Assembly (NCBI GenBank): GCA_902789425.1
Contig: CADANX010000001.1
Coordinates: 80,206-144,205 of the forward strand
DNA from: an uncultured Erysipelotrichaceae bacterium
Lineage (GTDB): Bacteria > Bacillota_I > Bacilli_A > RF39 > UBA660
DNA length: 64,000 nt
Reading direction: 5' to 3'
The notes below the pieces were generated by a model that was not told the DNA's origin, made no database searches, and worked only from the letters and a program-made list of their open reading frames with translations. Positions 21,290 through 39,407 of the stretch are shown here, piece after piece. The position numbers were made by a program, and so were the translations under genes. Positions within the stretch are counted from its first letter, which is position 1. Every line of letters starts with the position of its first letter.

Positions 21290-23244
<1,955 letters not shown>

Positions 23245-23383
23245 TATAAGAAAATGTTTTATATAAAATATTTTCTATAATCATTTATTAATTTATATAG
23301 TATATAAATTTAAATGATTTATAAATTATCGTGGTTCGTTTTGTTCTGCAAAGAATGAAAGAAGCGATAGATAATTTCGGTTT

Positions 23384-23436
23384 CTAAGGTATGACCTTAG
23401 CTTCCATATCTTGTTCATGACAAGATATATAGGAAG
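23384..23436 (+). other. candidate oriT: two adjacent hairpins upstream of the relaxase gene
   Basis: IR-a: ctaagg (23384-23389), a 5-nt loop, ccttag (23395-23400). IR-b: atatcttgt (23406-23414), loop tcatg, acaagatat (23420-23428), extendable by cttcc/ggaag with a bulge. Confidence 0.4.
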
Positions 23437-23498
23437 TTATGAATTATGTCTTTATCGATTTTATCGCTAAAAAACAAATTCTTATTTAGGGGGAATAT

Positions 23499-24782: not shown

Positions 24783-24805
24783 ATATATTTGTATAGTTAG
24801 TAAAA

Positions 24806-24834
24806 TTGACACTATAAAAAAAATAATATATAAT
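24806..24834 (+). promoter_or_regulatory. perfect-consensus sigma-A promoter of the cargo operon
   Basis: TTGACA (24806-24811), exactly 17 nt, then TATAAT (24829-24834). The RBS aaggggga lies before the ATG at 24859. Confidence 0.6.
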
Positions 24835-24858
24835 ATCAAATAAATTAAGGGGGATTAT

Positions 24859-25725
24859 ATGATAGATTTACATGTACACTCTGTATACTCTGATGGTTTT
24901 TTGACAGTCGAAGAATTAATTGATAATGCAAGAAGCAATGAAGTGAATATTATGTCAATAACTGATCACGATACTACTTTAGGTGTAGAAGAGTATAGTA
25001 AAAATATTAGAGATGATATTATAGTTATTCCTGGAGTAGAGTTTTCTACTGATACATATTATTTAGGTAAAAAGACTAAGATACATATGTTAGGTTATGG
25101 ATATAAAGTATATGATAAATTAATTAATAAAGTATTAAGTGATTTATATCAAAGACATTATAATGATAATAAAGGATATATAGAAGAATTAATAACTAAA
25201 TTTAATTATTTAAGTAATGAATTCTTTATAGATTTTAATTACGGTAAAAGTGGATGGTTATATAAACATATTTTAAATTGTGTTAATGAATATTTAAGTA
25301 AAGAAGAATTAGAAGAACTAAGAGAATACTTAGTTAATAATAAACCTAATTATAATAAATATAATGAAGATGTATGTGATGTTATTAAACTAATGAAAAG
25401 TATTGGTGGCTATGCAGTATTTGCACATCCTCAAAAATGTAATTTAACTAAAGAAGAATTAAGTATATTAGTTAAGTATTTAACTGATAATGGATTAGAC
25501 GGATTAGAAACATATCATATAGATTCTATTAGTAGTGATAGAAAGATAATTCATGACCTTGCATTAGAATATGGTTTATATGAAACTGGTGGAAGTGACT
25601 TCCATAGTTTCATATATGGAAATGGTGTTGGAGATACTAATATTAAATTTCCAGAAAATTATGATCCTTTACTAGTTAAAAGATTAATAAAAGAAAATAA
25701 GGTGTTGGGTGGTAAAAATGAATAA
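24859..25725 (+). CDS. PHP-domain metal-dependent phosphoesterase (TrpH/YciV-like)
   Basis: N-terminal 'IDLHVHSVYSDG...MSITDHDT', then 'FAHPQ' and 'GGSDFHS'. These are the characteristic PHP His/Asp metal ligands. Confidence 0.75.
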   Translation: MIDLHVHSVYSDGFLTVEELIDNARSNEVNIMSITDHDTTLGVEEYSKNIRDDIIVIPGVEFSTDTYYLGKKTKIHMLGYGYKVYDKLINKVLSDLYQRHYNDNKGYIEELITKFNYLSNEFFIDFNYGKSGWLYKHILNCVNEYLSKEELEELREYLVNNKPNYNKYNEDVCDVIKLMKSIGGYAVFAHPQKCNLTKEELSILVKYLTDNGLDGLETYHIDSISSDRKIIHDLALEYGLYETGGSDFHSFIYGNGVGDTNIKFPENYDPLLVKRLIKENKVLGGKNE

Positions 25726-26653
25726 TAAATTAATATTAGATATTTATAATAAGAAATATTTATTACCTATTTATTCTGGTTCTTTAGCTATAGAAGGAGT
25801 TTTAAGAAGTTTAAATTTAAATAGTAATGATAAAGTATTAATAACTAATGTAGTATGTCATAGTATTTTACAATCTATATTAAACGCTAATTTAACCCCA
25901 GTGATAGCAATACCAAGTAATGGTTTAACTTTGTCTAAAAAAGAAATTAAGGATATTGTTAAAAAAGAAAATATTAAGGTATTTATAGCAGTTCATCAAT
26001 ATGGATATGAACAAGAAATAATTAAAATAAAAGATTTAATAGTTATAGAAGATATTGCTCAGGCTTGGAACATTGTTTTAAGTGATGGATATGTAGGTAA
26101 GTATAGTGATTATATTGTTACATCTTTAGGTAAGAGTAAGGAGTTATGTAATGGTATTGGAGGACTTATTATATCTGATATTTATTTTATTAATAATTTT
26201 GATATTAAGAAAAGAGAATGTAGAAATAGTAATTCTAAGTTATTAGAATATTATTATCCAATAGATATTAATTATAAAAAATTATTAAAAATCGGTAATA
26301 GGAATGTTAAAAGAAATAGAAAAAATGCTAAGTATTATAAAAATATATTTAGTAAATATAATTTTATAAAGTTAGTTAATGAGAATAATAGTATTCCTAG
26401 TTATCATAGATTTTTAATTTATGTAAGTGATAAATATTATGAAGATATTATATATATATTAGATAAATGTAATATTAAATATCAAAAAGAATATAAAGAT
26501 AAATTAGATAATATTAATTTAGTTAAGAATAATAGGATAAAAGTTATTGGTAGTAATAATAGTAATGATAAATGTTTATTATTTAGAACTAATAATAGTT
26601 ATTTTAATATTAAAAAGTTAGAAAGGGAGTTGGTGAAGTATTATGGATCCTAA
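25718..26653 (+). CDS. divergent DegT/DnrJ/EryC1/StrS-like PLP-fold protein (possibly degenerate)
   Basis: 'SGSLAIEGVLRSLNL..DKVLITNVVCHSILQSI' resembles the N-terminal region of sugar aminotransferases. 'VTSLGKSKEL' is a candidate PLP-Lys segment. Overall similarity is weak, and the protein is shorter than gene 27602-28756. Confidence 0.4.
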   Translation: MNNKLILDIYNKKYLLPIYSGSLAIEGVLRSLNLNSNDKVLITNVVCHSILQSILNANLTPVIAIPSNGLTLSKKEIKDIVKKENIKVFIAVHQYGYEQEIIKIKDLIVIEDIAQAWNIVLSDGYVGKYSDYIVTSLGKSKELCNGIGGLIISDIYFINNFDIKKRECRNSNSKLLEYYYPIDINYKKLLKIGNRNVKRNRKNAKYYKNIFSKYNFIKLVNENNSIPSYHRFLIYVSDKYYEDIIYILDKCNIKYQKEYKDKLDNINLVKNNRIKVIGSNNSNDKCLLFRTNNSYFNIKKLERELVKYYGS

Positions 26654-27590
26654 GATTATGTATGTAAGAGTATCTGAAAATTGTAATTCACATTGTTTTA
26701 TGTGTCATTTTGCAGGTACTAGTAACGCTTTAAATATAAGTGATGAACAATATGATAAGTTATTAAATCATATGAAAAAGAAAAATTATAAGATGATTAG
26801 ATTTACTGGAGGAGAACCATTACTACATAAGAATATTATAGAGTTTATTAAGAAAGCTAAAGAGATTGGTGTTAAAGCATCTATTATTACTAATGGATAC
26901 TTATTACCTTTATATGTAGATAAGTTATTAAAAGTAGGTTTAGATGAATGTATTATTAGTTTAGATGGTTCTTGTAGTGAAGTACATGATAGTTTAAGAA
27001 ACTTTCCAGGATGTTTTGATAATATTATTAAGGGTATTAAATTATTAAAAGAAAAAGACATTATTATAAGAGTAAATACAGTAGTAAGTGGTAAAAATAT
27101 TTCAGATATTTGTAATATATATGATTTATTAATTAATTTAGGAGTAGATCAATGGTCTATTATTCCTGTTAAGTATAAAGAAAATTTATGGAATGAAGAT
27201 AGTATTAATTACTATAGAGAATTTGTAGATAAAGTTAAGGATTCTAATGATATTAAATTCTTAGGTTATTCTAAAAACTTTGCTGGTTTAAGTGATGAAG
27301 AGATAAAAGATACTTTTGATAATAATAGTAGATTAAGTATTAAAGATAATTGTAAGGTAGTTGATAATGTTAGATTCTATATTCCCGATAAAGATGTATT
27401 AGTACCATGTAATTGTGTTTCTCATAGACTAAAGGAATTACCTTTTAGTATTACTGGTGATATGGAAGAAGTTTGTGAGAAGATAAGATTATGGTTAAAG
27501 GAAAATAATTGTAGTTGTAAATGTGAACCATTAAATGTTTATATTAATGATCATCCAGAAATAATGGATGAAGATGAAATATTATATTAA
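26643..27590 (+). CDS. radical SAM enzyme with C-terminal Cys-rich extension
   Basis: CX3CX2C 'CNSHCFMCHF' lies near the N-terminus, and 'FTGGEPLLH' is present. Additional Cys residues occur in 'PCNCVSH' and 'NNCSCKCEP', which could hold an auxiliary cluster. Confidence 0.8.
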   Translation: MDPKIMYVRVSENCNSHCFMCHFAGTSNALNISDEQYDKLLNHMKKKNYKMIRFTGGEPLLHKNIIEFIKKAKEIGVKASIITNGYLLPLYVDKLLKVGLDECIISLDGSCSEVHDSLRNFPGCFDNIIKGIKLLKEKDIIIRVNTVVSGKNISDICNIYDLLINLGVDQWSIIPVKYKENLWNEDSINYYREFVDKVKDSNDIKFLGYSKNFAGLSDEEIKDTFDNNSRLSIKDNCKVVDNVRFYIPDKDVLVPCNCVSHRLKELPFSITGDMEEVCEKIRLWLKENNCSCKCEPLNVYINDHPEIMDEDEILY

Positions 27591-27601
27591 GGGGTGAAGT
27601 T

Positions 27602-28756
27602 ATGATTAATCCAAATGAATATGGAAGTTTATTATTTGATGATAAGGAGAAGGAATATTTAAGTAATGTTATAGATTCTAGAAGAATATTTAGATATTCT
27701 AGAACAGATTATCCTTATACTAAAATGTGTGAAGAAAAGATATGTGAGTTAGTTAATTCTAAATATGCGTTATGTACTACTAATGGAACTTCTTCTTTAA
27801 AAAGTGCTATGGTAGGAGCTGGTGTTAGTTATGGTGATAGAGTATTAATAAGTTCTTATACTTTCTTAGCTACAGCACTTTCTGCAATTGCATTAGGAGC
27901 AACTGCAGTACCTATTGATGTAGATTTAGATTATGGACTTAATTTAGAAGATTTGGAAAATGAAATAAAAAAAGGATGTAAGGCAGTAGTTGCAGTACAT
28001 TTTCAAGGAAGAACTTTTGATTTAAGTAAGGTAGTTGAGTTATGCAAAAAATATAATGTTATGTTAATAGAAGATGCTTGCCAAGCATTTGGATCTAAAT
28101 ATAAAGATACTTATGCTGGTACTTTTGGAGATATAGGAGTATATAGTTTTCAACAATTTAAACAAATTACTTGTGGTGAAGGTGGTTGCTGTGTAACTAA
28201 TAATGAAGCTGTTTTTAATAGAATGAGAAATTATACTGATATGGGCTCTACTAGAGATAGATTTCCTTCTTGGAATAGTGAAGAAGCATTATTTGGTGAA
28301 AATTATAGAATGAACAATTTATGTTCTGCAGTACTTTATTCACAACTTGAAAAGTTAGATGATGTTATTTTAAGACAACGAAAGTCTAGAAGTAATATCA
28401 TGAGTAAGTTAAGTAATATAAATAATATATTAACAAGTAAAGATAGTAGTGGAGATACTTGTATGAATATAGTTATTATATTAAATGATAAAAACAATAA
28501 AGAAGATGTTATCAATTATGGTAAAGAATTAGATATTGAATTTAGAAATATGTGGTCTTCTTTATATTATGATAATGATTTATTTAGAAGAAATAATTTA
28601 ACTTCTATAGATATAAAGAATAACGAATGCAGTTATACTAAAGATTTAATAGAGAAAATGTTAGTTATTTCTATTCCACCAATATTAAGTAGTGATGATG
28701 AAGATATAATTGTTAATGCTATTAATGGTATTAAGGAGAAAGGGTATTTATCATGA
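27602..28756 (+). CDS. DegT/DnrJ/EryC1/StrS-family PLP-dependent (amino)sugar aminotransferase
   Basis: 'CTTNGTSSLKSAMVGAGVSYGDRVLISSYTFLATA', 'LIEDACQAFGS' and 'YSFQQFKQITCGEGG' (PLP-Lys context) are present. Confidence 0.8.
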   Translation: MINPNEYGSLLFDDKEKEYLSNVIDSRRIFRYSRTDYPYTKMCEEKICELVNSKYALCTTNGTSSLKSAMVGAGVSYGDRVLISSYTFLATALSAIALGATAVPIDVDLDYGLNLEDLENEIKKGCKAVVAVHFQGRTFDLSKVVELCKKYNVMLIEDACQAFGSKYKDTYAGTFGDIGVYSFQQFKQITCGEGGCCVTNNEAVFNRMRNYTDMGSTRDRFPSWNSEEALFGENYRMNNLCSAVLYSQLEKLDDVILRQRKSRSNIMSKLSNINNILTSKDSSGDTCMNIVIILNDKNNKEDVINYGKELDIEFRNMWSSLYYDNDLFRRNNLTSIDIKNNECSYTKDLIEKMLVISIPPILSSDDEDIIVNAINGIKEKGYLS

Positions 28757-29682
28757 TTATAGAGAGTATAAGTAGTAAGGAATATTTTGATATTGTAAGT
28801 AAGTTAGATTATATTCCTATATATAGTGATATAGAAGCAATTAATATTTATTCTAATAAAGAATTTATTAAAGTTAGCAAGAATGATAATGTTATTGCTG
28901 TAATGTTAGTACCTATTGATAATAGTGGAGTTAGAAGAGAATATAGATATTTCCCTTATATTAATCCTATATTTTTAGAAGAAGTAAATAATGTAAGTAA
29001 GAAAAATGTATTAAAGTTAATTTTTAATTATTTATTTAAGAAATATGATTATACTTTTATACCTTTACATCCTTCATTTAAATTGATTTCATCAATTCAA
29101 AGTGAAGGTGGTTTAGTAGAAATGAGACATACTCATATTACTAATACTAAATTAACTTTAGATAATGTATCATCTAAGTTAAGAAATCATATTAGAAGTG
29201 CAGAAAAGAATGTTCAAGTTTTAATAGATAGAGATTATAGTAATTTTAGTTTTGTGGATGCAATTAAAGGCAATAGTGATGAAGTAACAAAGAGAAGTAA
29301 GCTAACTAAGAAATTAATTGATAATGGTAAAGGTATTGTTGTTAAAGCATTTGTTGATGGAGAAGTAAAAGCTGGAGTTATTTGTGTATATGATAAAGAA
29401 TGGTCTTATTTATTACATTCCTATCAAGATAAAAGTATTAGAGGAGTTATTCCTTTACTTATATTAAAAGCTAATGAATATTTATTTGATAAAGTTGGTA
29501 TTAAGTATTTTGATTTTGAGGGTAGTGTTATAGATGAAATTGATGATTTTTTTTCAAGTTTTAATGTAGATATTATTAATTATCCTTATGTTATAGAAGC
29601 AAATACACAGGATAAATTGTATAATTTAATTAATAGAAGTATGAATATAGAAGGAAGGATTAAGTATTATGAAGATAAGTAG
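28753..29682 (+). CDS. FemAB / Acetyltransf_6-like GNAT-fold transferase
   Basis: 'SSKLRNHIRSAEKNVQV' and 'GEVKAGVICVYDKEWSYLLHSYQD...IKYFDFEG' follow the pattern of FemAB/BioF2-like GNAT proteins. The ATG overlaps the previous TGA (ATGA). Confidence 0.45.
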   Translation: MIIESISSKEYFDIVSKLDYIPIYSDIEAINIYSNKEFIKVSKNDNVIAVMLVPIDNSGVRREYRYFPYINPIFLEEVNNVSKKNVLKLIFNYLFKKYDYTFIPLHPSFKLISSIQSEGGLVEMRHTHITNTKLTLDNVSSKLRNHIRSAEKNVQVLIDRDYSNFSFVDAIKGNSDEVTKRSKLTKKLIDNGKGIVVKAFVDGEVKAGVICVYDKEWSYLLHSYQDKSIRGVIPLLILKANEYLFDKVGIKYFDFEGSVIDEIDDFFSSFNVDIINYPYVIEANTQDKLYNLINRSMNIEGRIKYYEDK

Positions 29683-30709
29683 TAGAGAGTTTAATAATAT
29701 TAAAGAAGGAAAACAAGTTTATATAGTTAGTGATGATAATAGTTATGATAATAAAGATATAGTATTACTTGAAAGTAATGATGATACTTTAGAAGTAGAA
29801 ATTACTATTAAGTATAAATATAATAGTTTAGAAGACTGTTTTAATTTATTACCATTTGATTTATTTGGGTTTGAAACTCAAGAAGAGGCATTAGATTATT
29901 ATAAAGATATTAATGATATTATAGTTTATCGTATTAAAGTAGATAATGATAGAAAGTTAGAAGATAATTTAGATGATGAAATATTAGATTTAATTGATGT
30001 TTCTTCTATTGTAAAAAATAATGTTGGCCACAGTGCTAGTGAAGTTTATGAATTAAAGTTAAAAGATGGAACTGAAGCTATTTTAAAAGTACAATATTTA
30101 AGTAGTAGAAATGATTTAAAAGGTGAATATGAAAGAAATAAATGGTTAGAAGATAAATTAAATGTACCTAAAGTATTTTGTTTTAAAGAAATAAATAAAG
30201 TTCAATATTATTTAAGAGAAAAGAGTATTGGAGTATCTGTTCATAAAGTTGATAATTTTGCTCCATTAGTAGGAGAAAATTTAAAAGAAATACATAGTGT
30301 AGATATAAGTGATTGTCCATTTGATAATAATGATACTTTAAAATTATTAGATATTGCATTATCTAAGATAGATATTATATTACCTAATATTATAGAATTA
30401 TACCCTGATATGAATAAAGAAAGTATCATAGAATTCTTAAAAAATAAAAGACCTCTTGATAGAGTATTAGTACATGGTGATTACAGTCTACCTAATATAT
30501 TAGTAGATGTGGATAGAACAGTAAGTTTAATTGATTTAGGAGATGTAAGTATTTCTACTAAGTATTTCGATTTATATTATTTAAGAAAAAGTTTTAATAG
30601 AAATAAAAAAATGGATTATTTTAATGAATTTTTAGAAAGTTATGGTTTATCTAGTTTAGATGATGATTCTATGAAATGGATGGACATTATTGATAAGGTA
30701 TTATACTAA
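29669..30709 (+). CDS. fusion protein: N-terminal ASCH-like domain + C-terminal APH-family (aminoglycoside phosphotransferase-type) kinase
   Basis: The N-terminal ~95 aa ('FNNIKEGKQVYIV...LEVEITIKYKYNSLEDCFNLLP...GFETQEEALDYY...IIVYRIKV') are ASCH-like. The C-terminal part has 'AILKVQ', the catalytic 'VLVHGDYSLPNILVD' and 'SLIDLGDVSIS', as in APH(3')-type kinases. Confidence 0.7.
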   Translation: MKISSREFNNIKEGKQVYIVSDDNSYDNKDIVLLESNDDTLEVEITIKYKYNSLEDCFNLLPFDLFGFETQEEALDYYKDINDIIVYRIKVDNDRKLEDNLDDEILDLIDVSSIVKNNVGHSASEVYELKLKDGTEAILKVQYLSSRNDLKGEYERNKWLEDKLNVPKVFCFKEINKVQYYLREKSIGVSVHKVDNFAPLVGENLKEIHSVDISDCPFDNNDTLKLLDIALSKIDIILPNIIELYPDMNKESIIEFLKNKRPLDRVLVHGDYSLPNILVDVDRTVSLIDLGDVSISTKYFDLYYLRKSFNRNKKMDYFNEFLESYGLSSLDDDSMKWMDIIDKVLY

Positions 30710-32802
30710 TGATAGTTATAAAAACTATTGATGAGTTAAGTAATTATGAAGAATTAATTAGGGGGTTAAAAATTAATAATTATCAACAAACTTATGAAAA
30801 TATTTATTCTATTTATTTATCTAATGATAGTGCTATTAGTTTTTTAGATAAAGATATGTTTACTGTATTAACTAAAAGAGATGATAATATTTATGAATGT
30901 CCTTTAAATATAGAACCTATAATAAATTCTAATAATCCTAAAAATGAATTATTAGAGTTTATAAATGATATTAAAGATTATTTAGGAAAGATTATTTATT
31001 TTTCTTTAGTATATGAAGATTCCAACTTTTATAAATTATTAAATAATGATTTATATACTTATGATAGATTATATACTTCAATATGTGATTATAGTAAGAT
31101 AGATAATATTTTAGATAGAGTATTAAGCAGTGAAAAAGTTCATTATTCTAATAGAAATGTTAAGAAGTTTAAGAATAATTTATATATTAAATATTATAGT
31201 AATATTGATCCTACTGATATTATTGTTAGTATTGAAAAGGATAGTTGGAAGAATATTGCTAAGCAAGATATGATTAATAAGAAAGAACAATTATTATATT
31301 ATTCTTCTTTAGTTAAGTTAGGTGTTGCTAATATAGCAGTATCATATATGAAAGATAGTAATGATATAGTATCTTATAGATTAGAAACTATTTATAATAA
31401 TAAGGTACATGTTTTAAAGAATTCTTTTAGAGAAAAATATAAGAAATATTCTCCTGGATCTTATATGTTAATTAGTGATTTATATAATAATTATAAAGAT
31501 TATAATTATGTAGATTTATATGGTGGACCAGGTTTAGTTAAAGATATGATAGAAACTAGAAGAGTTAATAGATATGATATGTTAATAGGAGAAGAAGATA
31601 TTATTAAGGATCTTGAAGTAAGAAGAAAAAGATGGGATTTAAAAAATTATAGTAATTTTTTAAATGATAAATCTATTAAATATATCTTTAATAAGAAAGA
31701 AAATATATTAGCTGTTACTAGTTGTTTTGGATTAGGTCCAGTTGGTAAGTTAAGTGCTATTGTTGAGACTAGTAAAAATGATTTTAATTGGTATGCATCT
31801 GGAGAAGAATTTGATATAAATATTTTTAATGATAAGAATATATTTATAGATAAATGTTTTACGATGGATAAAGAGATATTAAAGGAATTTTTAGATAAAT
31901 ATAATATTAAGTATGCTTTAGTAGTACTAAAAAATAAAATGGCCCGTTTATTACTTGAATTAGGAATTAAAGTTATATATGTAGACAGTTTACCTTTTAT
32001 GTGGAGTATGGAAGATGCTAATAGTGGTAAGGTACCATATAATGTAGATTGTTATTGTGCACAAAAAACTATTGAATTATCAAGCATCTCAAAAGAAATA
32101 TTTAGTAAAGTTAAAAATTTAGTTTGGGTAGATCCAATTGTTAATAAGAATAATATTAATTTAAGTAATAAGAAAAGTAATTATATATTAGTTAATATTG
32201 GAGGATTACATTCTCCTAGTACTAATGGATATGATTATGTAGATGTTGTTATAAAAAATTTAATTAGGATATATAAAGATTATAAGATTATTATTACTAC
32301 TTCTTTAAAATCATCTATTTATTTAAAAGAAGATTTAAAAGAATATAGTAATGTAGATGTTAAAACATTGAAACAAAGAGAATTTTTTCAGTATATAAAT
32401 AATGCTAAGTTATTTATTACTAGTCCTGGTTTAACGACGATATTAGAAAGTAGAAATATTATTGATAAGGTAGTATTTTTACCTCCACAGAATATAAGTC
32501 AGTTTTATAATGTAGAATATGGTAAAAAGATATTTAAATATTATAAGGAGTTAACATGGAATAATAATAAATTAACTATAGTTGGTTTAAATAAATATTT
32601 AGAGTTAGATGAACATGGTGTTATTGAAGTAATAAATAATGAAATAAGTAAGATGAGTAATGAAAGTGAAAAAGAAACTTATATGAATTATATGAAAAAT
32701 ATTTTAGATAGTTATTATATAGAAAATAAAGATAATGATAATATAACTTTTAATGGAGTTAATGAAGTTATAGAAAATATAAAGAAAGTAATGGGGGAAT
32801 AA
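30709..32802 (+). CDS. fusion protein: Acetyltransf_6/FemAB-like GNAT domain + C-terminal GT-B glycosyltransferase-like domain
   Basis: The N-terminal half has 'EKDSWKN', 'VSYRLETIYNNKVHVLKNSF', 'KYSPGSYML' and 'YVDLYGG' (CelD/BioF2-like GNAT pattern). The C-terminal half has 'YILVNIGGLHSP', 'LFITSPGLTTILES' and 'VVFLPPQNISQFYN', reminiscent of the MurG/GT28-type C-terminal domain. Confidence 0.45.
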   Translation: MIVIKTIDELSNYEELIRGLKINNYQQTYENIYSIYLSNDSAISFLDKDMFTVLTKRDDNIYECPLNIEPIINSNNPKNELLEFINDIKDYLGKIIYFSLVYEDSNFYKLLNNDLYTYDRLYTSICDYSKIDNILDRVLSSEKVHYSNRNVKKFKNNLYIKYYSNIDPTDIIVSIEKDSWKNIAKQDMINKKEQLLYYSSLVKLGVANIAVSYMKDSNDIVSYRLETIYNNKVHVLKNSFREKYKKYSPGSYMLISDLYNNYKDYNYVDLYGGPGLVKDMIETRRVNRYDMLIGEEDIIKDLEVRRKRWDLKNYSNFLNDKSIKYIFNKKENILAVTSCFGLGPVGKLSAIVETSKNDFNWYASGEEFDINIFNDKNIFIDKCFTMDKEILKEFLDKYNIKYALVVLKNKMARLLLELGIKVIYVDSLPFMWSMEDANSGKVPYNVDCYCAQKTIELSSISKEIFSKVKNLVWVDPIVNKNNINLSNKKSNYILVNIGGLHSPSTNGYDYVDVVIKNLIRIYKDYKIIITTSLKSSIYLKEDLKEYSNVDVKTLKQREFFQYINNAKLFITSPGLTTILESRNIIDKVVFLPPQNISQFYNVEYGKKIFKYYKELTWNNNKLTIVGLNKYLELDEHGVIEVINNEISKMSNESEKETYMNYMKNILDSYYIENKDNDNITFNGVNEVIENIKKVMGE

Positions 32803-32803
32803 T

Positions 32804-33250
32804 ATGAAAATTTATTTAGCAAGTCCTATATCAAAATATGTTAGAAATGGTATGGATAAAGATTATACGGAAACTATTGATAAGGTATATGAATTATTAT
32901 GTAAGCATGGAGAAGTTTATTATCCACTAAAAAAAGAAGCTTATGGAGAAGATAAGACAACAGGATCTGGAGAAGTTTGTACTAAAGTTGATTTTGATAA
33001 AGTTAATGAAGCAGATTTAATTGTTGCTTTTCCAGAAGATTCACAAGGTGTATCAGTTGAAATGGGTTGGGCCAGTTCAGCTAAAAAGAATGTATTAATA
33101 TTTATTGATAAGAATTATCATCAATCTGAATTAATTAGATTTATTGATACTGTAACACCTGCAGTTAAAGCAAATATTAATACTTGTGATGGTTATAAAA
33201 AACAAGAAAAAGAAATATTAGATGCAATAAATAAATATTTTGGAGAATAA
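32804..33250 (+). CDS. nucleoside 2-deoxyribosyltransferase-family protein (possible nucleotide N-glycosidase, BlsM/MilB-like)
   Basis: 148 aa with 'MKIYLASPIS', 'EADLIVAFPED' and 'GVSVEMGWA' (candidate catalytic Glu). This is the typical Nuc_deoxyrib_tr pattern. Confidence 0.65.
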   Translation: MKIYLASPISKYVRNGMDKDYTETIDKVYELLCKHGEVYYPLKKEAYGEDKTTGSGEVCTKVDFDKVNEADLIVAFPEDSQGVSVEMGWASSAKKNVLIFIDKNYHQSELIRFIDTVTPAVKANINTCDGYKKQEKEILDAINKYFGE

Positions 33251-33252
33251 TT

Positions 33253-34344
33253 ATGGAATTAAAGTGTGATTTTCAAGTTCATCATCCACTAGGTGGAGCT
33301 TCATATGTTTTTGAACATGATTTAATTAATTATATTTTACGTAAGGTTAAGAAGGATAAGATTGTTATTAGTATAGGAGCACAACCTAATTCTTCTCCTC
33401 ACTTTGGAACATTATGTGTTTTTTCATTGGCATTTTCATTAGCCAGTTTAATTAAATCGAAAAGTTGTAAGGAAGTAGAAGTATTATTTGAAGTAGTTGA
33501 TACTGCTCCAAGTAAAACTATTACTGTTAATGGAATTAAATATCAAATGGATTTAAAAGAATCTAATAAGATGAGTGAATCTATGAATGATTTTGAAGAA
33601 ATATTAGAGTATTATAGTAAGAAGAATAATATTAAATATAGTATTAGAAATCAAAATGAATTTAATGGTCAAGAAGAGATTAAAAATATTTTAAGTAATA
33701 TTGTTAATCATGAAGATGATGTTAAATTTTTATTAGATCCAGATAATGGTAGATTAAGAATGAGATGTTCTTGTTTAGAATGTGGTTTAGTCGATAAAGA
33801 AGGTATTAATACAGTTATTAAAGATAATATAATTGAATCCTTTTGCCCTAATCATGGAGAATATAAGGTGGATTATATGATTGAAAGTAATAGAGTTGAA
33901 TATAATACTCCTTTACGTAATTTAGTTAGAGCTATTATGTATGGAATTATTAATGATAGTAGTTCATATGATTATGAAATAATCAGAATTACTGGTGGAG
34001 ATTATGCTGGCTTTTATCAAGAAGAATTATTATATAAGGCATCTTCTATATTAGGATATGAAGCTAATAAGTTGCCTATGATAGTTTATTGTCCACAAAT
34101 ACTTGATTGGTCTGGAGCTAAATTATCTAAAAGCTTATATGTAAAAGAAGGTGCTTATCAATATTTACCAAAATATGTAATTAATTATTCTTATTTAAGA
34201 GATAAATTTGGTATTAATGGATTAGATGTAATAATTGATGAAACTAAATTATGGTTAAATGAACCATATAGATTATTTAGAAATTATTCAGTTTATTATT
34301 TTATAAAATTATTTGAAGAGAGGTATAATAATGGAATTAAGTAA
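33253..34344 (+). CDS. class-I aminoacyl-tRNA-synthetase-like protein (truncated, no anticodon-binding domain evident) with Cys cluster
   Basis: HIGH-like 'SPHFGT' (aa 48-53), KMSKS-type 'KLSKS' (aa 290-294), and 'ITGGDYAG'. An inserted cluster 'CSCLEC...CPNH' uses Cys172/174/177/198 and His201. Confidence 0.55.
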   Translation: MELKCDFQVHHPLGGASYVFEHDLINYILRKVKKDKIVISIGAQPNSSPHFGTLCVFSLAFSLASLIKSKSCKEVEVLFEVVDTAPSKTITVNGIKYQMDLKESNKMSESMNDFEEILEYYSKKNNIKYSIRNQNEFNGQEEIKNILSNIVNHEDDVKFLLDPDNGRLRMRCSCLECGLVDKEGINTVIKDNIIESFCPNHGEYKVDYMIESNRVEYNTPLRNLVRAIMYGIINDSSSYDYEIIRITGGDYAGFYQEELLYKASSILGYEANKLPMIVYCPQILDWSGAKLSKSLYVKEGAYQYLPKYVINYSYLRDKFGINGLDVIIDETKLWLNEPYRLFRNYSVYYFIKLFEERYNNGIK

Positions 34345-34630
34345 AGTACAAAAAGAGGTAATAGAAAATAAAATAAATCATGGTTTTAATACTAATGATG
34401 TTAATAAAGAATTTTTATTATTATATGGTGAAGTAAGTGAAGCTTATGAAGCATATAGAAAGAAGAAAGATGATTTGGGTGGAGAGTTAGCTGATGTAGC
34501 AATTTATCTACTTGGAATTTCTGAAATATTAGGTTTTGATTTAGAAGACGAAATAAATAAAAAAATGGAAATAAATAAGAATAGAATTTATAAGAAAGTA
34601 AATGGTGTAAATATCAAAATTGACAATTAA
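34331..34630 (+). CDS. MazG-like nucleoside-triphosphate pyrophosphohydrolase (small all-alpha type)
   Basis: 'LLLYGEVSEAYEAYRK' and 'ELADVAIYLLGISE' form the EExxE / ExxD helical pair typical of MazG-type proteins. The start is set at the ATG at 34331, behind gaagagagg, overlapping the previous gene. Confidence 0.7.
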   Translation: MELSKVQKEVIENKINHGFNTNDVNKEFLLLYGEVSEAYEAYRKKKDDLGGELADVAIYLLGISEILGFDLEDEINKKMEINKNRIYKKVNGVNIKIDN

Positions 34631-34647
34631 AGGTCATATGGTATAAT
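34620..34647 (+). promoter_or_regulatory. consensus extended -10 promoter for the ABC-F gene
   Basis: TTGACA (34620-34625), a 16-nt spacer ending in TGg, then TATAAT (34642-34647). It lies inside or after the MazG-like gene 3' end. Only about 21 nt separate it from the ATG at 34669. Confidence 0.6.
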
Positions 34648-34668
34648 AATTTCGATAGAGGTGAATTT

Positions 34669-36327
34669 ATGACAGAACTAAGTTTAAATAATATTGAAAA
34701 AACATTCGGTTTTAAAAAGATATTAAATGGTTTTGATCTAGAATTAAAAACTGGTGAAAGAGTTGCTTTAATAGGACCTAATGGTTCAGGTAAAACAACT
34801 ATATTTAATATGATAACTGGAGATGAAATTCCAACTGCTGGTCAAATATCTATAAGAAAGGGTGCTACTGTAGGATTCTTATCTCAAATGCCTCCTAAAT
34901 ATGATGATGAAGCTACTGTAAGAGATATTATAGTTCAAGGGAAAACTAAATTATTAGAAGTAGAAGCTAAATTAAGAAAATTAGAAAACAAATTAGGTCA
35001 ATGTGATCCTGATCAAATGGATGATTTATTAAAATCTTATGGGCAATTACAAGAAGCATTTGAAAACATGGGTGGTTATCAATTAGAATCAGATATTAGT
35101 AAAGTATGTGGTGGTTTTAAAATATCAGATGAAATGATGGATAGAAAATTTTCTACTTTATCTGGTGGAGAAAAAACTATTGTATCTTTTGCTAAATTAA
35201 TTTTAAGTGAACCAACTATATTATTATTAGATGAACCTACTAATCATTTAGATATTAGTACTCTAGAATGGTTAGAAGAATATTTAAAAAATTATAAAGG
35301 TAGTATTTTAATAAGTTCACATGATAGATATTTTTTAGATCAAGTAACAAATAAAACTATATTAATTGATAGAGGTAAGAGTGAAGTATTCTTTGGTAAT
35401 TATTCTTATTATTTAGAAGAAAATGAAAGAAGAATAATGGCTGAATTTGAAGATTTTAAAGATCAACAAAAACAAATAGCTGCTATGAAAGCTTCTATTA
35501 AGAAATTACAAGAATTTGGTAGATTAGCTTTCCCTGGAGGAGAAGCATTCTTTAAAAGAGCTGCTAGTATTCAAAAAAGATTAGATAAATTAGAATTATT
35601 GGATAAACCAGAAGAAAAGAAAGATATTCCACTTGATTTCCAAATTAGTAAACGTAGTGGTAAAGATGTTTTAATTATTGAAGATTTATCTGCCATGATT
35701 GGTGATAAAGTATTATTTGATGGAGCTAATATGCATATTACTTTCGGAGATAAAGATTGCTTAATGGGGAAAAATGGTAGTGGTAAATCAACATTAATAA
35801 AAATGATATTAGAACAATCTAATGCTGAATTATTAGGTGGAAAAATAAAATTAGGTAGTAATGTAATAATAGGTTATTTACCTCAGGAAATACGTTTTGA
35901 AAATGAAGATGCTACTATATTAGAAACTGCTAGGCAATTTTATGATGGAACTGAAACTCATTTAAGAGCTAGTTTAGCTAAGTTCTTATTTTATGAAGAT
36001 AATGTATTTAAAAAAGTCAAAACTTTATCTGGTGGTGAAAAGGTTAGATTAAAATTATTCGAATTAATTCAAAAGAATGCTAATTTCTTAATTTTAGATG
36101 AACCAACAAACCATATTGATATAGATACTAAAGAAATGTTAGAAGAAGCATTAAAAGAATATAATGGTACGTTATTATTTATATCACATGATAGATATTT
36201 TATTAACAAATTGGCTAAAAATACTATGGAAATTAATGATGAACATATAGATAATTACATTGGCAATTACGATTATCTAAAAGAACAAAAAACAAAATTA
36301 TTACAAAAGAGTAGTATAAAAAGATGA
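34669..36327 (+). CDS. ABC-F family ATPase (no transmembrane domain; candidate ribosome-protection / translation factor)
   Basis: It has two ATP-binding cassettes: Walker A 'GPNGSGKTT' and 'GKNGSGKST', two 'LSGGE' signatures, and 'LLLDEPTNHLD' / 'LILDEPTNHID'. A charged inter-domain linker of about 75 aa separates them. Confidence 0.9.
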   Translation: MTELSLNNIEKTFGFKKILNGFDLELKTGERVALIGPNGSGKTTIFNMITGDEIPTAGQISIRKGATVGFLSQMPPKYDDEATVRDIIVQGKTKLLEVEAKLRKLENKLGQCDPDQMDDLLKSYGQLQEAFENMGGYQLESDISKVCGGFKISDEMMDRKFSTLSGGEKTIVSFAKLILSEPTILLLDEPTNHLDISTLEWLEEYLKNYKGSILISSHDRYFLDQVTNKTILIDRGKSEVFFGNYSYYLEENERRIMAEFEDFKDQQKQIAAMKASIKKLQEFGRLAFPGGEAFFKRAASIQKRLDKLELLDKPEEKKDIPLDFQISKRSGKDVLIIEDLSAMIGDKVLFDGANMHITFGDKDCLMGKNGSGKSTLIKMILEQSNAELLGGKIKLGSNVIIGYLPQEIRFENEDATILETARQFYDGTETHLRASLAKFLFYEDNVFKKVKTLSGGEKVRLKLFELIQKNANFLILDEPTNHIDIDTKEMLEEALKEYNGTLLFISHDRYFINKLAKNTMEINDEHIDNYIGNYDYLKEQKTKLLQKSSIKR

Positions 36328-36740
36328 TGGATTTTGGAATTTTTTTAAGTATTAAGCCTAATTTCGTTAGAATTATAGAAAGTGGTAAAAAAAATTTTGA
36401 ATTTAGAAAATATAAACCTAAAAAAGATTTTAATAAAATATATGTTTATGAATCCCATCCAACTTGTATGTTAAAATATATTATATATATAGATAAAATT
36501 GTTGAATACCCTAATAAAATAGATGAATTTGGTATAGGTAATAATGATTTTAATAATGGTTTAAAAAAATCAAAATATGCTTATCATATTTTACATCTTG
36601 ATATGTTAGAAGAGCCCATTACGTTGAAGTATTTAAAGACAATGTTTAACTTTTATCCACCGCAATCTTTTATATATGAAAATAGTAATTATGAATTGAA
36701 AAAATATATTGATAAATTAAAAAAAGTTAGAATTTATTAA
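36324..36740 (+). CDS. stand-alone ASCH-domain protein
   Basis: 'LSIKPNFVRIIESGKKNFEFRKY', 'IYVYESHP' and 'PPQSFIY' match the typical ASCH pattern. It is translationally coupled to the ABC-F gene (ATGA overlap). Confidence 0.65.
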   Translation: MMDFGIFLSIKPNFVRIIESGKKNFEFRKYKPKKDFNKIYVYESHPTCMLKYIIYIDKIVEYPNKIDEFGIGNNDFNNGLKKSKYAYHILHLDMLEEPITLKYLKTMFNFYPPQSFIYENSNYELKKYIDKLKKVRIY

Positions 36741-36805
36741 CTACAAAATTATAATAAATAAAATTTGATATATTATTCAAAAATATAAAATTCATGTTAT
36801 ACTAT

Positions 36806-36841
36806 AGATAGAACTGATATTTATTAGATTCTATCTTTTTT
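36806..36841 (+). terminator. terminator hairpin after the ABC-F/ASCH unit
   Basis: An 8-bp stem pairs agatagaa (36806-36813) with ttctatct (36829-36836), followed by a T-run. Confidence 0.5.
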
Positions 36842-36891
36842 GATATAAGTGTTCAAAATAGGCTCTTGTATCGCACCAATTGTTGATGTTT

Positions 36892-36929
36892 AGAACACTA
36901 ACATGTATTATGTGAAGTGTTCTTTTTTT
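36892..36929 (+). terminator. second terminator hairpin with a competing upstream arm
   Basis: An 8-bp stem pairs agaacact (36892-36899) with agtgttct (36916-36923), followed by T6. A second copy of 'agtgttc' at 36848-36854 can pair with the same arm. Confidence 0.5.
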
Positions 36930-37142
36930 ATGTTATGATTAACAAAAAACACTGTGTTTTGTGGTAAAATAGTATAAATGCAACCAACTTTCTACAAAAA
37001 ACAACCTAAAGATGGTAGAGCGCAACTGGTAGAAAATTATAAAATGTTTGTGTAAGGAGAAAAAAATATGAATAATCAATTTTCAGAAAATTCAAAAAAA
37101 TTAGAAAATAATAATGAGCAATAATTATAAAAAGTTTTTGTT

Positions 37143-37167
37143 AAAGAACCGAATGGTTCTTTTTTTC
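37143..37167 (+). terminator. terminator hairpin
   Basis: 'aaagaacc' / loop gaat / 'ggttcttt', followed by a T-run. Confidence 0.5.
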
Positions 37168-37200
37168 TTTTATTATGTGATATAATGATTATATAAGGTA

Positions 37201-37908
37201 GTGATAGATGTGAATTTATTTTTAGAATTAATGTTTATATTTTATATTGGATGTACTTTAGGTTGGGTTATCGAATTGTTTTTTAGAAGAATAGTACATG
37301 GTAAATGGATTAATCCTGGATTTCTTGTTGGTCCTTATTTACCTATATATGGTTTTGGATTACTTATTTTAACTATTATATATTTATTATTAAAAGATTC
37401 TGATTTAAATCCTATTGTTATTATATTGATTATGGGATTATCTATGACATTTATTGAATTTGTTGGTGGATTAATTGGTTTAAAAAATAAAATTAGATTA
37501 TGGGATTATTCGGATTTATGGGGAAACTACAGAGGAATAATATGTCCTCAATTTAGCGTAATTTGGACATCAATTGGAGCAGTTTATTATTATTTTCTTG
37601 TTCCATATACAATGTATGCATTAGAATGGTTTAGTAAGAATATAACTTTTTCATATATGCTTGGTTTATTTACTGGTTTTATAATTATAGATACAGTTTA
37701 TTCAACTAAACTATATAATAAAATTAGAAAATATGCAAAAGAAAATAATATTACAATTAAGTATGAACAGTTTAAATCTCATATTAAAGATGCACAATTA
37801 AAAGCAAAAGAAAAATATTCATTTATAAAACCATTTAGTCAAACTAAGTTATTATTGGAATATTTGGATGATTATAAGGATAAATTGATAGAAAAATTAA
37901 TTAAGTAA
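37201..37908 (+). CDS. polytopic membrane protein ('putative ABC-transporter type IV' / DUF1113-like family)
   Basis: 'GCTLGWVIELFFRRIVHGKWINPGFLVGPYLPIYGFG' is the characteristic N-terminal block of this family. The protein has about 6 TM segments. Confidence 0.55.
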   Translation: MIDVNLFLELMFIFYIGCTLGWVIELFFRRIVHGKWINPGFLVGPYLPIYGFGLLILTIIYLLLKDSDLNPIVIILIMGLSMTFIEFVGGLIGLKNKIRLWDYSDLWGNYRGIICPQFSVIWTSIGAVYYYFLVPYTMYALEWFSKNITFSYMLGLFTGFIIIDTVYSTKLYNKIRKYAKENNITIKYEQFKSHIKDAQLKAKEKYSFIKPFSQTKLLLEYLDDYKDKLIEKLIK

Positions 37909-37981
37909 TAAAACATTTTAAAAATTAATTGTTAAAACCAGTAGTATTAGAATAAATAGATAAAAAACATCTATTTTTTTC

Positions 37982-38010
37982 TTGCTTTTATAAAACAATA
38001 GGCGTATAAT
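37982..38010 (+). promoter_or_regulatory. promoter candidate of the zur-znu operon
   Basis: TTGCTT (37982-37987), a 17-nt spacer, then TATAAT (38005-38010). Confidence 0.5.
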
Positions 38011-38018
38011 ATCGAATA

Positions 38019-38033
38019 TGAAAATGATTTTCA
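38019..38033. promoter_or_regulatory. Fur/Zur-box-like operator
   Basis: A perfect 7-1-7 palindrome, TGAAAATgATTTTCA, lies immediately downstream of the -10 hexamer. Confidence 0.55.
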
Positions 38034-38052
38034 AATTGAAAGAGGTGTATAT

Positions 38053-38451
38053 ATGTCTAGAAATGATACATATAATACAAAACAAAAAGATGCTATTTTA
38101 AAGATAATTAAAAAGCAAAATAAGGCATTTACTATTAAAGATTTGTATAATTTACTTAAATATGAGACTGGTCTTACTACAATTTATAGACTTGTAGATA
38201 AGCTTATAGCCGAAGGTTATATCAGTAAGCATATTGGAAAAGATAATATCACTTATTATCAGTATTTAGAAAAATGTGATAATGAAAATCACTTCTATTT
38301 AAAATGTGATGAGTGTGGTATGATTACACATGTTGACTGTGATTGTATCGATGAATTATCAAGTCATATAATAAAAGATCATAAATTTAAATTAAGTAAA
38401 GAAAACATAATGATAAATGGATTATGTGATAATTGTTGTAATGGGAGGTAA
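38053..38451 (+). CDS. zur: Fur-family metalloregulator, probably zinc uptake regulator
   Basis: 132 aa with a winged-helix N-terminus and C-terminal Cys pairs 'CDECG...CDC' and 'CDNCC'. It is the first gene of a ZnuABC-type operon. Confidence 0.7.
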   Translation: MSRNDTYNTKQKDAILKIIKKQNKAFTIKDLYNLLKYETGLTTIYRLVDKLIAEGYISKHIGKDNITYYQYLEKCDNENHFYLKCDECGMITHVDCDCIDELSSHIIKDHKFKLSKENIMINGLCDNCCNGR

Positions 38452-38453
38452 TT

Positions 38454-39407
38454 ATGAAAAGAGTATTTAAAATATTAATTGTTACATTAGTTTTAATAGG
38501 TTTAGTTTTTATTACTGGTTGTGATAAAAAGAAAGATGATGGTAAATTAACTATTATAACTTCTAGTTTTCCTGGTTATGACTTTGCAAGGGCTATAACT
38601 AAAGACAATAAGGATATTACAGTTAAAATGTTATTAAAACCAGGTTCAGAAATGCATAATTATGAACCAACACCACAAGATATTAAAGATATTAAAAATA
38701 GTGATATATTTATATATGTTGGTGGTGATTCTGATGAATGGATTGATGATATATTAGATAATATCGATGTGAAAAAGACAAAAGTTGTTAAATTAATGCG
38801 TTTAGTTGATTTAGTTGAAGAAGAACATGTTGAAGGAATGGAAGCAGAAGAAGATGCAGTAAATGAAGAAGAAGCACCTGAATATGATGAACATGTATGG
38901 ACTAGTCCAAAAAATGCAATTACTATTACAAAAAAACTAACTAAAGTTATAGTTGGTTTAGATGAAGATAATAGGTCAATTTATGAAGAAAATTCATCAA
39001 AATATATAAGTGAATTAGAAAGTATTGATAATAGAATTGAAGAAGTAGTTAAAAATGCTAAAAGAAAAGAAATCGTATTTGGAGATAGATTTCCGCTTCG
39101 TTATTTTGCAGATGATTATAATTTAAAATATTATGCTGCTTTTCCAGGATGCTCTGAACAAACAGAAGCTAGTTCAAAAACTATTACTTATTTAATAAAT
39201 AGAGTAAAAAAGGATAAAATACCTGTTGTATTTCATATAGAATTATCAAATGGAAAAATAGCTAAAACTATTGCAAAAGAAACAAATGCAAAAGTGTTAG
39301 AATTTAAATCAGCACATAATATTTCACAAAAGGACTTTGATGCTGGAGTTACTTATGTTGATATTATGAATGATAATATAAAAGTTTTAAAGGAAGCTCT
39401 TAATTAA
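38454..39407 (+). CDS. znuA: metal (Zn/Mn) ABC transporter substrate-binding lipoprotein, ZnuA/AdcA-type
   Basis: Lipobox 'ITGC', an acidic/His loop 'EEEHVEGMEAEEDAVNEEEAPEYDEHVW', and a cluster-9 SBP layout. Confidence 0.8.
   Translation: MKRVFKILIVTLVLIGLVFITGCDKKKDDGKLTIITSSFPGYDFARAITKDNKDITVKMLLKPGSEMHNYEPTPQDIKDIKNSDIFIYVGGDSDEWIDDILDNIDVKKTKVVKLMRLVDLVEEEHVEGMEAEEDAVNEEEAPEYDEHVWTSPKNAITITKKLTKVIVGLDEDNRSIYEENSSKYISELESIDNRIEEVVKNAKRKEIVFGDRFPLRYFADDYNLKYYAAFPGCSEQTEASSKTITYLINRVKKDKIPVVFHIELSNGKIAKTIAKETNAKVLEFKSAHNISQKDFDAGVTYVDIMNDNIKVLKEALN

Follow-up and report, generated by a model that had tools for sequence, protein, structure and literature searches.

A MazG-type pyrophosphohydrolase and a CMP N-glycosidase-like protein that may supply free cytosine in a blasticidin/mildiomycin-type gene cluster of a low-GC gut bacterium

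The locus described here lies in a 64,000-nucleotide stretch (contig CADANX010000001.1, positions 80,206 to 144,205 of the forward strand; hereafter the window) of the genome of an uncultured Erysipelotrichaceae bacterium, a low-GC gut organism whose assembly (G000) is 1.03 Mb and 91.5% complete. The window is AT-rich, with a G+C content of ~24%. An initial annotation, made from the sequence alone, placed genes for a nucleoside 2-deoxyribosyltransferase (NDT)-family protein and a MazG-like protein on either side of an aminoacyl-tRNA synthetase (aaRS)-like gene, and the three open reading frames (ORFs) do lie in that order, at 32804-33250, 33253-34344, and 34313-34630. They belong to a run of plus-strand ORFs, packed tightly or overlapping, that extends from 24859 to 36740 and, judged by its gene families, is most likely a blasticidin/mildiomycin-type cluster for a cytosyl-hexose nucleoside, carried on a mobilisable element. 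With a probability that we put at roughly 60%, the MazG and NDT-like proteins form a pair that converts a cytosine nucleotide to the monophosphate and releases cytosine from the latter for use by the glycosyltransferase of the cluster. The genes central to this reading are:

30709..32802, + strand: 697-aa fusion of an N-terminal half and a glycosyltransferase resembling cytosylglucuronic acid (CGA) synthase (residues 340-657); NCBIfam TIGR04467 CGA_synthase, 165.2 bits, cut-off 300
32804..33250, + strand: NDT-superfamily (d)CMP N-glycosidase-like protein, 148 aa; Pfam, Protein Data Bank (PDB) sequence, and fold matches
33253..34344, + strand: aaRS-like protein, 363 aa, class I, with a LysRS-like core; PHROG 35625 'tRNA synthetase' at 2e-21 and an Atlas lead to PF01921 clusters (0.94)
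34331..34630, + strand: predicted single-domain MazG-type nucleoside-triphosphate pyrophosphohydrolase, which closes the biosynthetic unit; profile and AlphaFold2 model
34669..36327, + strand: ABC-F ribosomal-protection protein, presumed self-resistance; NCBIfam NF000355, 444 bits, cut-off 380

The NDT-like protein matches Pfam PF05014 (38.4 bits, cut-off 28.8), and its only significant matches in a PDB sequence search are CMP N-glycosidases: BcmB (4jen, 3.3e-11), MilB (8e-7), and BlsM (2.6e-6). A profile built from 29 family sequences reaches BcmB at 1.4e-14, BlsM at 8e-9, and MilB at 1e-8, but true NDTs and DNPH1/Rcl at just 0.04-0.9; the values for DNPH1 (0.07-0.6) are not significant. When the AlphaFold2 model (predicted local distance difference test score, pLDDT, 87) is searched with Foldseek, BcmB 4jen and MilB 4jem come first at 2e-7 and DNPH1 ranks lower. 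BlsM, MilB, and BcmB act in the biosynthesis of blasticidin S, mildiomycin, and bacimethrin as CMP or hydroxymethyl-CMP N-glycosidases. These enzymes (PDB 5vto, 4jem/4ohb, and 4jen) are the nearest sequence relatives of the window protein and share its fold, at 22-27% identity to the solved structures. Membership of the BcmB/MilB/BlsM branch of the NDT superfamily is thus strongly supported by sequence and model comparison. A library of 1.84 billion proteins contains 364 family members at an E-value cut-off of 0.001. Neither gene is a chance ORF, since conserved homologues of both products are numerous (85 hits with the NDT-like protein, 1779 with MazG).

The initial annotation had singled out the glutamate of a 'VEMGWA' motif in this 148-aa protein as the candidate catalytic residue, and the alignment bears this out: E86, in 'SVEMGWA', is aligned with E103 in the 'HVEIGWA' of MilB and is invariant in 29/29 family sequences. 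In the excerpts of PMC4081090, E103 is the catalytic nucleophile of MilB, E62 and D78 bind cytosine, and S97 and G99 bind the phosphate. The five positions E62/D78/S97/G99/E103 correspond to E45/D63/S80/G82/E86 of the window protein, all are kept in the 29-sequence alignment, and 120 of 134 database representatives that span all five also have the E-D-S-G-E pattern. By contrast, the N-terminal motif F17-L-G-G-P-F22-R23 of MilB reads Y4-L-A-S-P-I9-S10 in the window, so that Tyr4 stands for Phe17, Ile9 for the stacking Phe22, and Ser10 for Arg23. Setting the active site against BlsM/MilB on one side and true deoxyribosyltransferases and Rcl on the other, as had been proposed, therefore gives a divided answer, with the catalytic Glu and the cytosine-binding residues kept but a Tyr where BlsM, MilB, and BcmB have Phe. 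DNPH1/Rcl proteins have the NDT fold, the catalytic Glu, and, as excerpts of PMC10603095 indicate, a Tyr at the position of Tyr4 (Y24 in DNPH1); according to the same excerpts, DNPH1 differs in having His56 where MilB and the window protein carry the cytosine-binding Glu. The Ser at the Arg23 position, together with the lack of a ThyA/MilA-like hydroxymethylase among the Pfam matches of the operon proteins, argues against a hydroxymethyl-cytosine substrate.

Scans of genomes and metagenome contigs led to 35 fetched loci, and these tie the glycosidase to a glycosyltransferase. In the window the NDT gene adjoins the CGA-synthase-like gene, and in 29/35 fetched loci such a gene adjoins or is near it; four of the six exceptions (L046, L050, L055, and L056) are short or cut on that side, L057 has no match, and L043 has a match to the N-terminal part only. 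Moreover, nine of the 12 long representatives of the family (509-654 aa) are fusions of NDT to CGA synthase, the others being two NDT::DegT fusions and one to a radical S-adenosylmethionine (SAM) protein. This linkage and the nine fusions are strong evidence that the product of the glycosidase feeds the glycosyltransferase. Excerpts of PMC3715490 describe CGA as made by BlsD/MilC from free cytosine and UDP-glucuronate, in a pathway that derives from CMP. Homologues of its first four steps (BlsM/MilB, BlsD/MilC, BlsE/MilG, and an aminotransferase) are clustered in the window, where, as with BlsM and MilB, a BlsE-like radical SAM gene as well as the glycosyltransferase accompanies the glycosidase. 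The BlsM/MilB-like reading put forward in the initial annotation is thus upheld by sequence, fold, catalytic and cytosine-binding residues, and glycosyltransferase linkage. TIGR04467 and TIGR04466 are far ahead of any other NCBIfam model for the two partner proteins, yet neither match reaches its equivalog cut-off (165 vs 300 and 184 vs 400), so that the cluster, on this evidence, is related to the blasticidin/mildiomycin system without being a copy of it. It additionally contains a PHP phosphoesterase, an APH-like kinase, the aaRS-like protein, and MazG. Its glycosyltransferase also differs in having an extra 340-aa N-terminal half. This half (30709-31728) is missing from the 373-378-aa glycosyltransferases of other cluster types, and its only match is a weak one to Acetyltransf_6 (0.0034); a relationship to the 309-aa protein encoded upstream was considered and rejected (BLASTP E 3.2).

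The MazG ORF of 34313-34630 encodes 105 aa from a TTG. Homologues begin at the ATG at 34331, which is most likely the start and gives a protein of 99 aa. A profile of 20 MazG sequences reaches solved MazG-type enzymes at 3.7e-7 to 3.5e-4, and the AlphaFold2 model (pLDDT 91.4) consists of four helices. Foldseek aligns this model with MazZ, iMazG, DCTPP1, and Sulfolobus SSO3215 at probability 1.00 and template modelling scores of 0.69-0.79, but at E-values of only 2e-3 to 2e-2. Numbered from the ATG, the protein carries a DCTPP1-like motif, G-E34-x-x-E37 ... E52-x-x-D55, whose four acidic residues do not vary, either across the 20 aligned sequences or in any copy of a larger alignment drawn from inside and outside biosynthetic gene clusters (BGCs). 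The ORF at 34331-34630 is, by profile and model, a single-domain MazG with an ExxE...ExxD metal site. The initial annotation had described a roughly 100-aa MazG-type protein with an EExxE/ExxD helix pair; the fold and the ExxE...ExxD arrangement stand, but the first motif is GExxE, and no literal EExxE is present. The all-alpha four-helix fold and the metal site are those of DCTPP1/RS21-C6, the cyanophage S-2L MazZ, the integron iMazG, and SSO3215. Unlike these enzymes, to which it is only 23-29% identical, the window copy is embedded in a nucleoside-antibiotic-type operon. The integron enzyme iMazG prefers dNTPs; a literature search on iMazG with dCTP found nothing.

The slot that MazG occupies is informative when related clusters are compared. 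Three types can be told apart by the residue at position 4 of the glycosidase and by the predicted pyrophosphatase:

Type A (window, L001, L002, L042, L043, L045, L046, L047): Tyr4; MazG directly before ABC-F
Type B (L004-L014, L049-L051, L053, L054, L058): Phe; free 191-aa Ham1-like protein directly before ABC-F
Type C (L052): Phe; Ham1 fused to the glycosidase

In type A, the order NDT, aaRS-like, MazG, ABC-F is found in all eight assessable loci (window included; NDT proteins at least 75% identical), and a FastTree phylogeny groups the eight MazG copies in a single clade. Type B clusters contain a LysR regulator, a GNAT, and a UDP-glucose dehydrogenase and lack the aaRS-like gene. In the 11/11 type B loci that reach the slot, a gene for a 191-aa protein lies immediately upstream of ABC-F (L009, 12464-13039; also L005, L006, L011-L014, L049, L051, L053, and L058). 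The protein has no Pfam match at 0.01, but a custom Ham1 profile matches it, hhalign aligns it to Ham1 with 93.5% probability (E 2.2e-7, 139 columns), and the best relaxed Pfam match is Ham1p_like at 0.0037. As these three lines agree, we classify it as a cryptic, divergent Ham1/RdgB-like protein. In type C, a 354-aa Ham1::NDT fusion is encoded inside the CGA-type cluster L052 (7389-8453). Such fusions make up six protein clusters (P0208, P0354-P0358) of 47-100% identity, all with a Phe-type glycosidase domain, and their halves match the RdgB-type pyrophosphatase 4bnq (5e-13) and BcmB (1.1e-12). The gene beside ABC-F in L052 encodes a P-loop kinase with a near-threshold cytidylate-kinase match.

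Two unrelated folds, each predicted to be a pyrophosphatase, are thus attached to one glycosidase family, once by fusion, and such recurrent attachment is what a supply line from nucleoside triphosphate (NTP) through nucleoside monophosphate (NMP) to free base predicts. Related clusters have most likely, on this comparative evidence, recruited a pyrophosphatase for the cytosine-supply step at least twice. In the proposed route, the MazG-type enzyme (34331-34630) would convert CTP or dCTP to the monophosphate and pyrophosphate. Glu86 of the NDT-like enzyme (32804-33250) would then cleave the N-glycosidic bond of the monophosphate, as its family and conserved residues suggest, and the CGA-synthase-like domain encoded immediately upstream would join the released cytosine to a nucleotide sugar by a BlsD/MilC-type reaction. 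The observed basis is family membership, residue conservation, operon position, and conserved linkage, from which we infer substrates and flux. The supply line had already been suggested in the initial annotation. Its second half is now strongly supported, while the conversion of NTP to NMP is supported only by the comparative genomics of types A, B, and C.

Several observations weigh against a dedicated role for MazG in this route. CMP is an ordinary metabolite and, to our knowledge, the Streptomyces bls and mil clusters do without a pyrophosphatase gene. The window protein scores slightly below both Pfam cut-offs (24.3 vs 27 for PF12643 and 21.7 vs 22 for PF03819); a 68% identical homologue in L012 exceeds both (33.9 and 27.2). 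The four acidic residues are common to copies within and outside BGCs, and the comparison revealed no BGC-specific residue; one candidate, E51G, was rejected because BGC copies carry G, S, or E there. The MazG family is also far bigger than the NDT family (1779 vs 85 homologues), and among 120 genomes of the host's family MazG is found in 17, an NDT relative in two, and both in one. Elsewhere, the MazG gene neighbours NUDIX genes, thymidylate kinase with uracil-DNA glycosylase (UDG), or an operon of deoxynucleoside kinase (dNK), NT5C, and PfkB genes, a pattern that fits a general nucleotide house-cleaning enzyme. Within the cluster family, L003 combines a Tyr-type NDT with an aaRS-like gene yet lacks MazG, a search of the whole genome (G121) gives no MazG match, and the 202-aa ORF in its MazG slot has no family match; in L057 and L059-L062, the portions fetched show no recognisable pyrophosphatase. 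Finally, a search for UDP-glucose dehydrogenase (PF03721) in the host genome, which is 91.5% complete, gave no match, so the sugar donor of the window glycosyltransferase may not be UDP-glucuronate. Type B clusters carry their own copy of that enzyme.

These points lend substance to a serious, if unlikely, rival in which the NDT-like enzyme alone belongs to the pathway, drawing on the existing CMP/dCMP pool, and MazG is a captured house-cleaning or mobile-element gene, passively hitch-hiking and doing nothing specific to the product. Being the sole copy in the genome of the host, it could simply do housekeeping. The rival also accounts for the 16/17 MazG-positive family genomes that lack an NDT relative, for neighbours that vary and are nucleotide-hygiene genes, for L039, where the element that carries MazG, thymidylate kinase, and UDG has a recombinase and a relaxase homologous to those of the window, and for the absence of MazG from L003 and its genome. 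It is harder to reconcile with an operon position that is fixed in 8/8 assessable type A loci, whose copies form one clade, or with the unrelated pyrophosphatase fold that fills the same slot in the 11/11 type B loci that reach it and, in type C, is part of one polypeptide with the glycosidase. In the same-genus genome G047, synteny at the MazG site extends to a CmpB-like gene only and is uninformative on the ancestry of MazG.

A decidedly less probable alternative to the supply of cytosine is sanitation, in which the two enzymes would protect the producer by degrading a toxic by-product in two steps, from analogue-NTP to analogue-NMP and then to base and sugar phosphate. The nearest relatives of the NDT-like protein other than CMP hydrolases are the DNPH1 proteins, nucleotide-pool sanitisers according to excerpts of PMC10603095; DCTPP1-type dCTPases are among the structural neighbours of MazG; and the cluster also contains a kinase-like enzyme and a PHP phosphatase. 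However, the linkage of NDT to CGA-synthase-like genes and the nine fusions point to a base that is used rather than discarded, the cytosine-recognising Glu and Asp of MilB are kept, and pyranosyl-cytosine products are unlikely to be triphosphorylated. The phage-defence role that the initial annotation had offered as an alternative is very improbable: depletion of NTPs or dNTPs is a known defence logic and the neighbouring 138-aa protein matches the candidate defence family PDC-M11B, but PADLOC gave no match for the NDT-like, aaRS-like, or MazG proteins, which are encoded within a biosynthetic operon that also contains a ribosome-protection gene and are linked to biosynthetic genes in the fetched loci.

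If the MazG and NDT-like proteins do supply cytosine, Tyr4 bears on the pool from which it comes. The Phe at MilB position 17 (motif F-L-G/A-G/A-P-F) is absent from the window protein, and all 28 close homologues that have the position also carry Tyr. Across the cluster loci, Tyr occurs in the window and in 11/35 fetched loci, the other 24 having Phe; library representatives with a residue there have Phe in 115/128 cases, Tyr in 12, and Asn in one. Tyr is therefore the minority state among these sequences and is probably derived. Phe17 of MilB accommodates the ribose 2'-OH. According to excerpts of PMC4081090, PMC10603095, and PMC7308715, it sets the preference for ribo- or deoxynucleotides. 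The first two of these papers report that the F17Y variant of MilB reverses the preference from CMP to dCMP, and an excerpt of PMC7308715 regards the choice between Phe and Tyr as what chiefly decides whether a member of the superfamily is specific for NMPs or for dNMPs. The natural change from Phe to Tyr is the same as this engineered substitution. Because Tyr4 marks 2'-deoxy specificity, the substrate of the NDT-like protein may be dCMP rather than CMP.

We tentatively suggest, while holding it less likely than not, that the cluster type in the window switched its cytosine supply from ribo- to deoxynucleotides, with a Tyr glycosidase that prefers dCMP and a DCTPP1-like MazG that would make dCMP from dCTP. 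Such a switch would fit Tyr4; the makeup of the Tyr clade, in which the lineage at least 75% identical is the one with MazG and without the Ham1-like gene; and the dCTP and dNTP pyrophosphatases among the structural neighbours of MazG. Strict coupling of Tyr to MazG is ruled out by L003. If the switch did occur, the pathway takes its base from the DNA-precursor pool. The Tyr/Phe split inside one gene-cluster family offers a direct test of the published ribo/deoxy rule for NDT-fold hydrolases.

The glycosidase is a variant of a known enzyme type; it is the arrangement of pyrophosphatase and glycosidase that is new for a known pathway type. Among the literature matches listed, none describes a pyrophosphatase step for this antibiotic class, and the matches listed for MazG with blasticidin, mildiomycin, gougerotin, amicetin, or CMP hydrolase contain no mention of MazG. 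All matches of a full-text search for 'cytosylglucuronic' concern Streptomyces, the host of BlsM/MilB-type enzymes, whereas the window belongs to a low-GC gut bacterium with a 1-Mb genome. If our interpretation is correct, actinomycetes are not the only carriers of cytosyl-hexose (blasticidin-type) nucleoside pathways, which also circulate on mobile elements, paired with ABC-F protection, among reduced-genome gut and digester Bacillota. It would also follow that a nucleotide pyrophosphatase has been recruited repeatedly ahead of a base-releasing glycosidase, as MazG, as free Ham1, and as fused Ham1. The clusters would then offer ready-made enzyme pairs yielding free bases from nucleotides.

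The remaining features of the cluster and of the element that carries it are:

21310..23244, + strand: large serine recombinase of the cluster-carrying mobile element; Pfam Resolvase 120 bits, Recombinase 75.6 bits
23499..24782, + strand: Mob_Pre-type relaxase; Pfam PF01076, 52.8 bits
24806..24834, + strand: promoter-like site ahead of the biosynthetic operon; 12/12 sigma-70 consensus, a consensus match only
24859..25725, + strand: PHP-domain phosphoesterase; Pfam PF02811, 45.5 bits; kept in cluster types A, B, and C
25709..26653, + strand: short DegT-like protein; Pfam PF01041, 63.4 bits
26643..27590, + strand: radical SAM enzyme, BlsE-like; best NCBIfam TIGR04466 rSAM_BlsE, 183.9 bits, equivalog cut-off 400
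27602..28756, + strand: DegT/DnrJ-type sugar aminotransferase; Pfam PF01041, 251 bits
28753..29682, + strand: 309-aa protein, in all cluster types; tblastn homologues in 25/35 fetched loci
29669..30709, + strand: APH(3')-like phosphotransferase with N-terminal extension; Pfam APH 67.7 bits, NCBIfam APH_3p 136 vs cut-off 205
34620..34647, + strand: promoter-like site with TG extension, ahead of the ABC-F gene; 12/12, a consensus match only
36324..36740, + strand: 138-aa protein ending type A clusters; tblastn matches in L001, L002, L003, and L042
37143..37162, + strand: terminator-like hairpin after the cluster

Gene spacing is tight or overlapping from 24859 to 34630, and a sigma-70 scan of 23000-38500 gave just the two 12/12 matches listed, one before PHP and one before ABC-F. 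The ABC-F gene fits a ribosome-targeting product. The 309-aa protein has no family match in Pfam or NCBIfam, and the aaRS-like protein has no sequence match in Pfam, NCBIfam, or PDB. Among the fetched loci, the aaRS-like gene is confined to Tyr-type clusters and is absent from L048. The 138-aa protein matches PDC-M11B in PADLOC at 4.7e-16 and also a PHROG without an assigned function. Within the NDT gene, positions 32905-33162 are covered by one contig from a gut metatranscriptome, and parts of ABC-F by two other RNA runs. In true RNA runs, no contig covers most of the aaRS-like gene or MazG, with X5 giving a short, poor match at 34281-34314. This coverage bears neither on transcription nor on its absence, as DNA carry-over is possible.

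The recombinase and relaxase have homologues in L039 (8573-16840), where a relaxase 46% identical to that of the window adjoins a 50% identical recombinase and the cargo is different, including thymidylate kinase, UDG, and a MazG. Type B proteins in L005-L014, L051, L053, and L058 are 83-100% identical across metagenome-assembled genomes labelled as Bacilli, Tenericutes, Firmicutes, and Sphaerochaetaceae, and several of these loci end in serine-recombinase genes. Together, these features suggest that type B clusters spread horizontally and recently.

Further loci contain relatives of one or the other enzyme. L059-L062 represent another cluster type with two tandem NDT-like paralogues, in which P-I-S-K and P-F-I-K, respectively, follow the conserved Phe. 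In L030 (3312-11897) and L031, from the same bacterial family as the host, a remote Phe-type NDT relative (tblastn identity 32-34%) lies beside a PNP_UDP_1 phosphorylase, two radical SAM proteins (one B12-binding), a small pyrophosphatase-like protein, and LysR, making these loci a different nucleoside-related cluster. On the MazG side, L033 (337-6128), like L034 and L035, encodes an NT5C-like protein, a radical SAM protein (502 aa), an Amdase-like protein, an unknown protein, a dNK-like kinase, a PfkB-domain protein (529 aa), and MazG, and this operon may be another nucleoside-modifying pathway. The MazG of L012 was rejected as part of the type B cluster at that locus; it follows a truncated gene resembling the PfkB gene that pairs with MazG in L033-L035.

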